Assembly: GCA_949295085.1 (NCBI GenBank)
Contig: CASFJS010000005.1
Span: forward strand, 136,991-200,990
DNA from: an uncultured Pseudomonadota bacterium
GTDB lineage: Bacteria > Pseudomonadota > Alphaproteobacteria > RF32 > CAG-239
Direction of reading: 5' to 3'
Length of the DNA: 64,000 nucleotides
Shown here: positions 34,635-37,504 of the stretch, piece after piece
How the letters are laid out: every line of letters begins with the position of its first letter
Numbering within the stretch: the first letter of the stretch is position 1
Position numbers and translations under genes: made by a program
Notes under the pieces: generated by a model
Databases searched by the model: none
Told to the model about the DNA's origin: nothing
Seen by the model: the letters and a program-made list of their open reading frames with translations, nothing else

Positions 34635-35090
34635 ATGAAACTCAATGAAATCAGAGATAACGAAGGCGCCAGAAAGCCCCGCAAGCGTGTGGCGCGCGGT
34701 ATCGGCAGCGGCTCCGGCAAAACGGCCGGTCGCGGTCAAAAGGGCCAGAAGTCGCGTTCGGGTGTTGCCGTTAACGGGTTTGAGGGCGGCCAGATGCCGA
34801 TTTATCGCAGACTGCCGAAAAGAGGTTTTAAAAACCACTTTGCCAAAGAGTTTGCCATTGTTAATCTGGACAGCATTCAAAAGGCGCTTGACGCCGGCAA
34901 ACTGAATGCCGAAGAGATTAATATTGAGGCTTTGTTGAAAGCCGGTCTGGTCAATAAAAAGCTGGATGGTGTTCGTCTGCTGGCCAGAGGCGCGATTACC
35001 TCAAAAATCAACATTACGGTTAACTCGGCGTCTAAGTCGGCGGTTGCCGCGGTTGAAAAAGCCGGCGGTAAAGTCAGCCTGGTGGCTTAA
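34635..35090 (+). CDS. rplO: 50S ribosomal protein L15
   Basis: [28 protein letters not shown]. Confidence 0.99.
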
Positions 35091-35109
35091 GAGTTTGCTT
35101 GCATAGCGC

Positions 35110-35146
35110 AAAAAATCCGTCCTTTTATTTGAAGGGCGGGTTTTTT
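35110..35146. terminator. Bidirectional terminator after rplO
   Basis: aaaaaatccgtcctt / aagggcgggtttttt. Confidence 0.85.
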
Positions 35147-35152
35147 GTTATG

Positions 35153-35709
35153 TTATTTATCCGGTGTGTATAGATATATACAGGTTTTAATGAAACCCCA
35201 AGACAGATCTATTCGTCTTTTTAATTTAAGAACGGAGAGTTTGAATACTTCAGACAGAACAAGACTGTCGGAGGTCAGTTCTTTATTGAGTTTGCTGCCT
35301 ATTTTTGTTCAATGCCGGTACCGAGATAACATAAAATCAAACGATATTCCGATAAATCTTCAAGAAAAAAGTCGCGATACTTTATCGTTATGTTAGGCAA
35401 ATTTCTGGTTTTGTAGACGGCCAGCATATAAGGGATGATATCCTATTCGTAACCGACAAATTGATGGTTTGGAAATTGTTTGGCCAAAGGAATCAGTAAA
35501 CTGCCGGAACCGCAGCCGAGACAACGGTTTGGGCGTCGGGGTGTTGTTGCAAAAACAATGCAGCCTGGCGGATGGTTTCTTTTTTGGGTTTGCCAAAAGA
35601 GGCTATAAACGGCGGGTTAAGGCCCCTGCTCTTGACAAAATAGATAATCAACCACAAATTAAAAAAAACAGGCCAGAATAAACAAAAACAGCGCAAAATA
35701 AAAAAACAT
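35153..35709 (-). pseudogene. Membrane-anchored class I SAM-dependent methyltransferase pseudogene
   Basis: Stitched translation MFFYFALFLFILACFF/NLWLIIYF..NPPFIAS..QTVV/LGCGSGSLL..FVGYE*DII..RDFFLEDL..ILCYL..EQK/IGSKLNKEL..VLSEVF. AAGGAG SD; three frameshifts and one TAG. Confidence 0.85.
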
Positions 35710-35733
35710 TCGGACAGCTCCTTGTTCGAGAAT

Positions 35734-35833
35734 AAAAAAAGCCGCCTTTGTCGGGGCGACTGGAAGTTGGAAACTACCGAAAGATAGTGCGACATATTGA
35801 CTGAAACAGCGTATTTTGCCGCCTTCCAGTCAT
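35734..35833 (-). ncRNA. C4-like antisense RNA (three-way junction) with overlapping terminator
   Basis: Minus strand P1 GACTGGAAG/CTTCCAGTC, P2 GCGGCA/TGTCGC with AATAC/AATA internal loop, P3 ACTATC-TTTC-GGTAGT, junction TTCCA; terminator GTCGCC/GGCGGC plus T7. Confidence 0.7.
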
Positions 35834-35881
35834 TGTGATGACTCTCAGACGTGCAAAATTTTCGTCTTTACACTACAGACG

Positions 35882-35963
35882 CTTTCGGAGAGGTTTCCAC
35901 ACCCCGGAACGGTCTATCAACCATTCCGCCGATCATCGTATTTGATTTTGCGGCAAAAGTAAA
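35882..35963 (-). promoter_or_regulatory. Promoter and upstream target site (a1/b1-like) of the C4-like RNA
   Basis: TTTACT-N17-TACGAT; downstream TGGAAAC-ctct-CCGAAAG is complementary to CTTTCGG-ta-GTTTCCA in the RNA. Confidence 0.65.
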
Positions 35964-36154
35964 GAAAATTGAGTTTAAAGGGGATTGTTTGAAAAAGTTT
36001 TTTGGGTTTGTCGATAAAAGCCGGGCAACTTCTTTTGTGTGCGGTAAAGGGATAAAACAGTTGCATTAAAAATTTTTTAGTGTATTAATATCTTAGCTTA
36101 AAAGGGTTTTAAAAAAGCCCTGATTGTTGTTTTTGAATTTTTAAGGAAGTAAAA

Positions 36155-37504
36155 ATGGTTTCATTGGCAGAAAAAATGGCGGCAAATATGGATATGTCCG
36201 CCTTCAGCAAAGCAGATGAATTAAAGAAAAGATTGTGGTTTACCGTGCTGGCGCTGATTGTGTTTCGCGTCGGGACGTTTGTGCCGCTGCCGGGGATTGA
36301 CCCGACAATCGTGGCCGAGTTGTTTGCCCGTAATTCCGGCGGTCTGTTGGGGATGTTTAATATGTTTGCCGGCGGCGCGCTGGAACGTATGACCATTTTT
36401 GCTTTGAACATTATGCCTTATATCTCGGCCTCGATTATCGTGCAGCTGGGACAATCGATTATTCCGTCGCTGCAATCGTTGAAAAAAGAGGGCGAGGCCG
36501 GACACCGCAAGATTACGCAGTATACCCGCTATCTGACGGTGTTGATTACGATTATCCAAGGCTATGGTATCGCCGTCGGGCTGGAAAGCATGAGCGGCGC
36601 CAGCGGTATGTCGGCGGTGTTGTTGCCGGGCGGTTTGTTTAAGTTTACGACGATTGTTTCGTTGGTCGGCGGGACGATGTTTATTGTCTGGCTGGGCGAA
36701 CAGATTACCGCGCGCGGCGTCGGCAACGGGTCGTCGTTGATTATTACCGTGGGTATTATCGCCAATATTCCGTCAGCCTTGGCGCAGACGTTTGAACTGG
36801 GGCGCGTCGGGTCGATGTCGACGGGGGTTATTTTGATGTTGCTGGTGATGGCGGTGGCGCTTGTTTATCTGATTATCTTTGTTGAGAGAGCGCAGCGCAA
36901 AATCATTATTCAATACCCCAAACGTCAGGCAATGGGGCGTATGGGCGCGGCCGAGAGTTCGCACCTGCCGCTTAAGATTAACCCGACCGGTGTTATTCCG
37001 CCGATTTTTGCCAGCTCGTTGTTGCTGTTGCCGATAACCATTGCCAATTTGAGCGCCGAAAACGGCCCGGCCTGGGTACAGAATTTGTCGCAGATGCTGG
37101 GACACGGTCAGCCGTTGTATTTGGCTCTGTATGCGTTTTTGATTGCGTTTTTTGCTTTCTTTTATACCGCGATTGTGTTTAATCCGGAAGAAACGGCGGA
37201 AAATTTGAAAAAACACGGCGGATTTGTTGCCGGTATCAGACCGGGCAAAAATACCGCCGAGTATCTGGACTATGTGATTACCCGTCTGACGGTTTTGGGC
37301 GCGGTTTATCTGGTCGGTTTGTGTATTTTGCCGGAAATTCTTATCAGCAAGTTGTCGGTGCCGTTTATTTTGGGCGGTACGACGCTGCTTATCGTGGTGC
37401 AGGTGACCATGGATTTTGTCGGGCAGATACAGTCGCATTTGTTGGCCTATCAGTATGAGTCATTAATCCGCAAAGCCTCTCTGGCCGGCAAAAAGAGAAG
37501 ATAA
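36155..37504 (+). CDS. secY: Preprotein translocase subunit SecY
   Basis: IMPYISASII, GEQITARGVGNG, GIRPGK, GGTTLLIVV. Confidence 0.99.
   Translation: MVSLAEKMAANMDMSAFSKADELKKRLWFTVLALIVFRVGTFVPLPGIDPTIVAELFARNSGGLLGMFNMFAGGALERMTIFALNIMPYISASIIVQLGQSIIPSLQSLKKEGEAGHRKITQYTRYLTVLITIIQGYGIAVGLESMSGASGMSAVLLPGGLFKFTTIVSLVGGTMFIVWLGEQITARGVGNGSSLIITVGIIANIPSALAQTFELGRVGSMSTGVILMLLVMAVALVYLIIFVERAQRKIIIQYPKRQAMGRMGAAESSHLPLKINPTGVIPPIFASSLLLLPITIANLSAENGPAWVQNLSQMLGHGQPLYLALYAFLIAFFAFFYTAIVFNPEETAENLKKHGGFVAGIRPGKNTAEYLDYVITRLTVLGAVYLVGLCILPEILISKLSVPFILGGTTLLIVVQVTMDFVGQIQSHLLAYQYESLIRKASLAGKKRR

Follow-up and report, generated by a model that had tools for sequence, protein, structure and literature searches.

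In the genome of an uncultured Pseudomonadota bacterium (GTDB lineage Alphaproteobacteria; RF32; CAG-239), a gap of 1065 bp between the ribosomal protein gene rplO and secY holds a unit of the opposite strand, in which a structured leader RNA precedes the remains of a methyltransferase gene. The window, by which we mean the whole stretch of 64,000 nt analyzed (assembly GCA_949295085.1, contig CASFJS010000005.1, positions 136,991 to 200,990 of the forward strand), has the 3' end of rplO (L15) at 35090 and the start of secY at 36155, both on the plus strand. The unit is flanked by L15, SecY, and Adk, and the neighboring ribosomal, secY, and adk open reading frames (ORFs) are all intact. A first-pass annotation had described the unit as a C4-type antisense RNA switch with a promoter, an upstream target ("target 1"), a three-way-junction RNA, a terminator, and a second target ("target 2") over the Shine-Dalgarno (SD) sequence and start codon of the next gene. 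Every string and coordinate quoted for these elements, including the loops, is present on the minus strand (Table 1).

The methyltransferase gene of the window is a pseudogene. Searches with intact orthologues (tblastn) recover its pieces in three frames, with at least three frameshifts and an in-frame TGG to TAG stop that replaces a Trp residue. In the orthologous loci of genomes G031 and G042 (L022, L028), the same leader RNA as in the window is followed, between secY and rplO, by an intact methyltransferase gene, whose product of 185 residues has a hydrophobic stretch at its N-terminus. The intact form matches Pfam Methyltransf_4 at 32 bits. The methyltransferase family occurs in 30 of 56 genomes of the genus, unbroken except in the window's own genome (G000) and in G019, and in six genomes the leader RNA is directly upstream of the gene. 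A membrane-anchored methyltransferase as the regulated gene, as originally proposed, is thus found intact in the orthologous loci, and in the window it has already decayed. The annotation gains an RNA family and a flagged decayed gene inside a ribosomal-protein cluster.

Table 1. Elements of the minus-strand unit between rplO and secY, in window coordinates (P1 to P3, helices of the three-way junction; J3/1, strand joining P3 to P1)
Feature	Position	Strand	Basis
Promoter, TTTACT (35963-35958), N17, TACGAT (35940-35935)	35935..35963	-	sequence and family motif
5' hairpin H0 (CGGAATGGTT / GACCGTTCCG)	35905..35928	-	predicted fold
a1 hairpin, GGGG / CCTC stem, 8-nt loop with a1 TGGAAAC (35899-35893)	35890..35905	-	
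b1 CCGAAAG, exact complement of P3 loop b'	35882..35888	-	sequence
Hairpin H1 (CGTCT ... AGACG)	35863..35881	-	predicted in 64/64 copies
Conserved spacer (AAATTTTGCA..GCCTTCTGG), anti-P1 alternative hairpin	35832..35862	-	complementary to P1 and P2 5' strands
Three-way-junction core (P1 of 9 bp, P2, P3)	35758..35831	-	fold and family model
b' CTTTCGG in P3 loop, then ta, then a' GTTTCCA in J3/1	35783-35777 (b'), 35774-35768 (a')	-	
Intrinsic terminator (AGTCGCC / GGCGGCT and T run)	35734..35761 (stem 35761-35740)	-	terminator scan
SD (GGAG) and ATG of downstream gene, proposed "target 2"	35707..35721	-	letters GGAGCTG-t-CCGAA 35721-35709, ATG 35709-35707
Methyltransferase pseudogene (185-residue form, N-terminal membrane anchor)	35156..35709	-	tblastn with intact orthologues

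A leader RNA family with locus-specific targets

Further copies of the leader were sought with BLAST and with a covariance model, R1, built from three copies of the window's own genome. Altogether 75 matches were aligned, 71 of which are distinct in the P3 and J3/1 segment. The own genome (1.47 Mb) contains four copies. Matches to R1 are present in 50 of 101 genomes, comprising 38 of 55 from the same genus, 43 of 60 from the same family, and members of a few other families of the class, with up to 24 matches in a single genome (G057). With a strict pattern derived from the alignment, the species collection yields at least 120 stretches, and the titles of nearly all name metagenome-assembled genomes of uncultured Alphaproteobacteria from animal or human gut and rumen; the pattern has no match in viral contigs. 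The leader belongs to a lineage-specific family of 5' leader RNAs, present in multiple copies in uncultured Alphaproteobacteria of gut and rumen, and is not the single domesticated or stand-alone module that the first-pass annotation had supposed. Its remark that no phage gene is nearby agrees with both the flanking genes and the viral contigs.

The anatomy of the window copy recurs across the family. A promoter motif (TT[TG]AC[ATC]-N16-18-TAnnnT) occurs at a fixed distance in 51 of 70 copies versus 3.9% of shuffles, stands 26-28 nt ahead of the next element in 44 of 50, and aligns across the own-genome copies, which bears out the promoter originally proposed. A generic promoter scan did not report TTTACT/TACGAT because only 8 of 12 consensus positions are matched. 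The H0 hairpin is predicted with at least 6 bp in 64/64 copies, its stem sequence varying among them, and the a1 site is presented in an 8-nt loop by a 4-bp stem of G(G/A)GG with CCTC in 64/71. On the minus strand of the window, a1 is separated from b1 by ctct. An antiterminator formed by the conserved GGGGTG 5' of a1 and the tail that follows P1 was considered and dropped, since the tail varies (ATC, GTC, GCT) and the pairing is largely wobble in many copies.

The 77-nt core alone folds as a three-way junction (z = -5.6) and scores 92.6 bits with R1, and three further copies of the own genome have the same layout, which agrees with the RNA structure first suggested. Folding of three copies places b' in the loop of P3 and a' on the strand that leads from P3 to P1. 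Of the cells in the family alignment, 93.8% are paired; both partners vary in 23 of the 27 pairs, and none of 500 shuffles reaches the observed score. Strong conservation is seen in P1, P2, and an internal loop. The terminator scan also supports the claim that the terminator shares bases with the 3' arm of P1: in the copies listed, it always begins inside the last 3-4 nt of the P1 3' strand. From the terminator to the start codon there are about 25-45 nt. The columns after P1 hold a purine (75/75), C (61/75), and C (62/75), with ATC or GTC in some copies instead. According to PMC5320573, the 5' end of C4 at the base of P1 requires RNase P; a tRNA-like purine-CC tail is a further mark of C4-type biogenesis.

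Target 1 is real, and a1 and b1 covary strongly with the a' and b' loops. The a1 site pairs with a' at seven of seven positions in 55 of 60 copies and at six of seven in the other 5, with Watson-Crick swaps at four positions, as compared with a mean of 5.34 of 7 against the a' sequences of other copies. The b' plus a' segment has a pairing energy of -17.6 kcal/mol with its own leader and -11.1 kcal/mol with the leaders of other copies. The own upstream leader is the single best partner for 42 of 70 copies and is within rank 2 for 54; it is also the best one for 21 of 25 copies inside G057 and for all four inside the window's genome. The copies are therefore orthogonal to one another, and the complementarity of target 1 to the RNA loops, as first claimed, stands. 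Of 71 copies, 69 have distinct b cores, and a' comes in 25 variants among the 71. Copies with cores at least 95% identical have a b-loop identity of 0.49, as low as that of the most distant pairs, versus 0.67 for the apical part of P2. The b sequence thus evolves faster than the loosely constrained tip of P2, yet stays matched to b1. This amounts to a clear specificity code, in which a and b differ in nearly every copy and each matches its own leader.

A genome-wide search for a plus b target pairs, made with the four own-genome copies, returned their own a1/b1 sites, the trivial antisense strand, and sites at chance level only. An exact a plus b site on contig C23 was rejected as a trans target because it is antisense to a coding region. 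These results bear on the idea that the leader is a stand-alone small RNA (sRNA) gene, whose transcript would stop at its own terminator and target mRNAs encoded elsewhere, with a1/b1 holding the sRNA inactive or setting its level and the downstream gene merely adjacent. The strong terminator right behind the RNA would fit, as would an intact leader in front of a dead gene, and PMC5320573 proposes bacterial targets for C4-like sRNAs of A. baumannii. We nonetheless regard this explanation as very unlikely, given the outcome of the target search, the short terminator-to-start gap, which leaves no room for another promoter, and an SD motif that is conserved as part of the module.

That motif, GGAAGTT, makes up the SD region of 32 of 57 RNA-linked genes (eg, L008 1455-1475, minus strand) and of 12 of 35 without the pilin-like genes, compared with 5 of 1428 crudely called gene starts in the own genome. 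GGAAGTT is the exact complement of the invariant AACTTCC formed by the end of J3/1 and the P1 3' strand. Judging from the letters, the two may act as an anti-SD/SD pair gated by P1.

Target 2 fares differently from target 1. Had the three-way-junction RNA a conserved second site over the SD and start codon, its own downstream region should be the preferred partner; pairing energies are -10.8 kcal/mol (own) and -10.1 kcal/mol (other), with the own region best in 3 of 71 copies. The longest complementary run in the -30 to +12 start-codon window is 7.15 nt for own and 7.10 nt for other combinations. Helices covering the AUG average 3.63 (own) versus 3.83 (other), and reach at least 6 in 3 copies with 3.96 expected (permutation p 0.96). 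Finally, five orthologous methyltransferase leaders share the b' sequence CTTTCGG (G000, G031, G045, G047, and G019), and CCGAA at the start is confined to G000; the ATG is immediately preceded by TCCGA in G000, CTTGT in G031, and CACAT in G045, G047, and G019. Since CCGAA is private to the window, it is best read as chance. Target 2 is thus rejected as a family feature on four tests (energy, run length, AUG helices, and orthologues). The search for copies and for covariation suggested in the first-pass annotation did find copies and a covarying target 1; target 2 shows no excess over chance.

The same data weigh on classical C4/CI immunity, in which a processed three-way-junction RNA blocks translation through a2/b2 sites over the SD and start codon, and target 1 is a decoy or an autoregulatory site. 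This is exactly the layout of phage P1 (always named as a phage here, as distinct from helix P1), and the window does present GGAG..CCGAA over the SD and start. Moreover, the start region TCATATG of the own-genome copy on the contig labeled C4 pairs with b' at seven of seven positions, including one G-U. To our knowledge, however, phage P1 has no intrinsic terminator between C4 and a2, and its record annotates none there, whereas the present family has one between the RNA and the SD. Together with the lack of an own-versus-other excess downstream and the confinement of CCGAA to one of five orthologues with the same b', this makes the immunity explanation improbable.

The ORFs downstream of the copies encode Opacity-like beta-barrels, glycosyltransferases of the GT1, GT2, and GT8 types, LicD, Stealth, and a DXD sugar transferase, and further ones a resolvase, several lipoproteins, and pilin-like proteins. 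In G057 (L038-L061), most of the 24 copies precede paralogues of about 210 residues whose N-terminus is of the prepilin type (..GRSMIEMLGVLAIIGVLS..), and the b sequence is particular to each copy. The copies at L013 and L014 stand before a small serine recombinase (Resolvase and HTH_7); such enzymes often serve in DNA inversion switches. Three copies have a tRNA gene about 200 nt upstream (L016 1226-1297, L029 1213-1285, and L043 1484-1556). A locus from another family (L066, G084:C24) has two tandem copies about 285 nt apart, at 1201-1284 and 1486-1571 on the minus strand, recalling the sRNA-Xcc1 arrays reported in Xylella.

Relation to C4 and other known RNAs

C4-type RNAs have been described chiefly in phage immunity, alongside a few chromosomal relatives. 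At gathering thresholds, Rfam reports only tRNA in the whole window, and isrK (RF01394) has no match in it at E<=10. In 22 other copies, the C4, c4-a1b1, isrK, and sRNA-Xcc1 models found nothing, neither in two copies examined at E<=5 nor in 20 examined at E<=1. The gathering scores are 45 bits for C4, 46.7 for c4-a1b1, and 53 for sRNA-Xcc1. As a positive control, phage P1 scores 68.8 bits with C4 and 51 bits with c4-a1b1, and its record annotates a1, b1, C4, a2, and b2.

The resemblance to the P1/P7 C4 RNA and its a1/b1 leader (RF01695, RF03163, clan CL00128) is one of layout. Both systems have, in the same order, a promoter, a hairpin, a hairpin of 4 bp with a1 in the loop, b1, and another hairpin; about 50-65 nt further on comes a three-way-junction RNA some 75 nt long, whose P3 loop holds b' and whose J3/1 strand holds a' (Rfam consensus on phage P1). 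In most copies here, as in the phage, a purine and CC follow helix P1, and in both systems specificity resides in a and b. The differences are considerable. Model R1 scores the phage P1 c4 at only 7 bits; helix P1 has 9-10 bp here and 17 bp in the phage; there is no conserved a2/b2; and the setting is chromosomal, many-copy, and non-phage. The family here also has a terminator overlapping helix P1 and an anti-P1 spacer, so that the a/b-paired fold in cis is the minimum, unlike in phage P1. Of the C4-type layout claimed in the first pass, then, the promoter, the upstream a1/b1 sites, and the three-way junction with a' and b' are present, and target 2 (a2/b2) and the phage context are not. We conclude that the leader is built, and would work, like C4-type units and is probably distantly related to them. 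It represents a large C4-like family that is missed by current Rfam models and that is fixed, within a gut clade without cultured members, as the leader of genes for the envelope and for surface variation.

The only contact in Rfam is sRNA-Xcc1 (RF02221), which aligns with the window copy over its full length at 34.1 bits (E 7.6e-4), below its gathering score. This RNA of Xanthomonas and Xylella integron cassettes and islands has the same three-way junction with a P1 helix of 9 bp; the host clade and the downstream genes are different. Some Xylella genomes are reported to have multiple copies of it (PMC12189769), and in integron cassettes it is described as preceding symE, which is not a phage gene and is read in the same direction (bioRxiv 10.1101/2025.06.18.660453). 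Identity with sRNA-Xcc1 was rejected, as the match is below threshold and limited to the window copy, with 0 of 22 other copies matched.

The Group 1 C4-like sRNAs of A. baumannii form a large family within one bacterial chromosome and differ from one another mainly in the specificity loops; they are proposed to arise from longer transcripts by processing (Weiss et al. 2016, PMC5320573). In that study they match the C4 motif of Rfam, and their origin is given as phage. The family here does not match that motif, and its members are fixed leaders of envelope genes, each with its own a1/b1 and terminator. Another relative in form is IsrK of the Salmonella Gifsy-1 prophage (RF01394). The isrK model matches the a1/b1 leader of phage P1 at 35 bits and hence covers a hairpin, the a1 hairpin, and a terminator-like hairpin, an arrangement resembled by H0, the a1 hairpin, and H1. 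In PMC2864571, c4 and c4-a1b1 are listed for Proteobacteria and phages, and a full-text literature search found no paper joining C4 antisense RNA with alphaproteobacteria.

Two predicted folds and a candidate attenuator

Two mutually exclusive folds are predicted for the leader. One contains the three-way junction (fold A), and in the other a1/b1 pair with a'/b' and the spacer pairs with the P1 5' strand (fold B). For 64/64 full leaders, the fold in which the a helix is forced lies below that in which P1 is forced (mean -11.9 kcal/mol), and the a/b-paired fold is the overall minimum in all 8 copies, of the 64, whose folds were printed. The anti-P1 spacer hairpin forms in the minimum-energy folds, and the duplex of the spacer with the P1 5' strand is computed at -19.6 kcal/mol for own combinations, compared with -14.9 when the partner comes from another copy and -8.8 when the spacer is shuffled. 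The predicted terminator stem has a mean of 7.4 bp in the a/b-paired fold versus 1.9 bp with P1 enforced. Helices of both folds are conserved and partly covarying, which is the mark of a switch. By the energy model, the leader has what an attenuator would need, namely two exclusive conserved folds, one of them with an intrinsic terminator just upstream of the SD. The one candidate for a signal that selects the fold is the three-way-junction RNA of the locus itself. Where the first-pass annotation had suggested a delay or self-silencing switch, the predicted folds point to an attenuator.

Our preferred reading, to which we assign a probability of roughly 0.55, is that the leader is a lineage-specific, multi-copy, C4-like unit that works as a locus-specific transcription attenuator. 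The conserved promoter would drive transcription of H0, the a1 hairpin, b1, H1, the spacer, the three-way-junction RNA, the terminator, and the SD and gene, in this order. In fold B, the terminator would be whole and transcription would stop; in fold A, helix P1 would hold the base of the terminator and allow read-through. Because the a and b sequences are locus-specific, any trans action of the three-way-junction RNA could reach only the nascent leaders made at the same locus, and by occupying a1/b1 the RNA would tip them toward fold A. In pT181 and pIP501 plasmid attenuation and in P4 CI immunity, RNA-RNA pairing on the nascent leader likewise decides whether a terminator forms, the same logic as proposed here. 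The antisense RNA of pT181 and pIP501 comes from the opposite strand, whereas here, as in P4 and phage P1, the complementary element is downstream on the same strand.

The two exclusive folds with a terminator could also belong to a leader that acts in cis only, riboswitch-like or protein-responsive, in which a ligand or protein bound to the three-way junction picks the fold and the a/b helices are an expression platform that never works in trans. The conservation of P1, P2, and the internal loop is what such a leader would show, and the set of envelope genes resembles riboswitch regulons. We consider it unlikely all the same. J3/1, which would have to line a pocket at the junction, consists of the variable a'; changes in the b helix have reached saturation even between near-identical copies, for which a cis-only helix gives no reason; and a1 is displayed in a hairpin loop, as antisense targets are. 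The first-pass annotation had pointed to a better match with an unrelated RNA family, such as a riboswitch, as one result that would overturn it. None was found, in that no Rfam riboswitch family matches and sRNA-Xcc1 is below threshold.

Several results weigh against the attenuator reading. The Rfam models by which the C4 assignment was to be checked, C4 (RF01695) and c4-a1b1 (RF03163) and likewise c4-2, have no match at E<=10 in 35000-36250. The leader of phage P1 keeps the three-way junction in its minimum-energy fold, with the 17-bp helix P1 formed and a1/b1 unpaired, so the two-fold behavior is not shared with the archetype. The switch is based on nearest-neighbor energies, and with no more than 3-4 nt common to P1 and the terminator, the two could both form through strand exchange. 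When a1/b1 are blocked, the P1 helix and three-way junction appear in the minimum-energy fold of only 10/64 copies, so that occupying a1/b1 alone may not give the three-way junction, and the trans-activation step is unproven by simple thermodynamics. The alignment of the three-way junction was fitted to the model, and its counts overstate independence because the copies are related. A contig of RNA run X1 matches only 35756-35833, with 6 differences and unlike flanks; given these differences and the core-only match, it is the copy of a relative or a paralogue. A second RNA run, X2, placed nothing on the unit, and neither run is evidence of expression or of a habitat. Finally, the leader is intact in the window although its methyltransferase gene is dead, as would be the case if the decay were recent or if the leader had a role apart from the gene.

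If the attenuator reading is correct, the family would provide a compact, programmable, and orthogonal RNA switch, explain how the surface repertoire is controlled in gut Alphaproteobacteria with small genomes, and propose a concrete role for the upstream a1/b1 sites of C4 systems. A bolder version, which we find quite unlikely, makes each copy an RNA-only, locus-specific bistable switch, in which the three-way-junction RNA made by read-through would bind its own nascent a1/b1 and sustain the ON state. In that case, the hypervariable b sequence would keep up to 24 switches per cell from cross-talk, and pilins, Opa-like porins, and glycosyltransferases could be turned ON and OFF independently and heritably without any change in the DNA.

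Variation at the rplO-secY site

In G019, where the methyltransferase gene is split (L207, G019:C2), the GGGG stem, a1, b1, and H1 contain several substitutions that break pairing, and the three-way-junction core is unchanged. The decay of these elements beside a split gene ties the upstream targets to expression of the gene.

The site differs in a close relative, G018 (L199, G018:C1, 2291-5685), whose SecY and L15 are 99.6% and 97% identical to those of the window. Here the same promoter is found with no leader RNA and with a methyltransferase allele only 57% identical, and there are extra ORFs, among them one of 631 residues without a Pfam match. From this arrangement, the rplO-secY site is variable and looks like a replaceable locus. 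Within run X3 (kind not on record, depth 2.8), one contig joins 35579 to 35998 and skips 418 bp (35580-35997). A 13-nt direct repeat, CAAACCCAAAAAA, stands at either end of the skip (36010-35998 and 35592-35580, minus strand), and the resulting form has neither the promoter nor any part of the leader RNA, while its methyltransferase gene is missing the 5' end. On the plus strand, a strong two-way terminator-like hairpin directly follows rplO (35108-35148), and a second hairpin is located just before secY (36103-36121); because of these two hairpins, secY is probably not co-transcribed with rplO in this genome.

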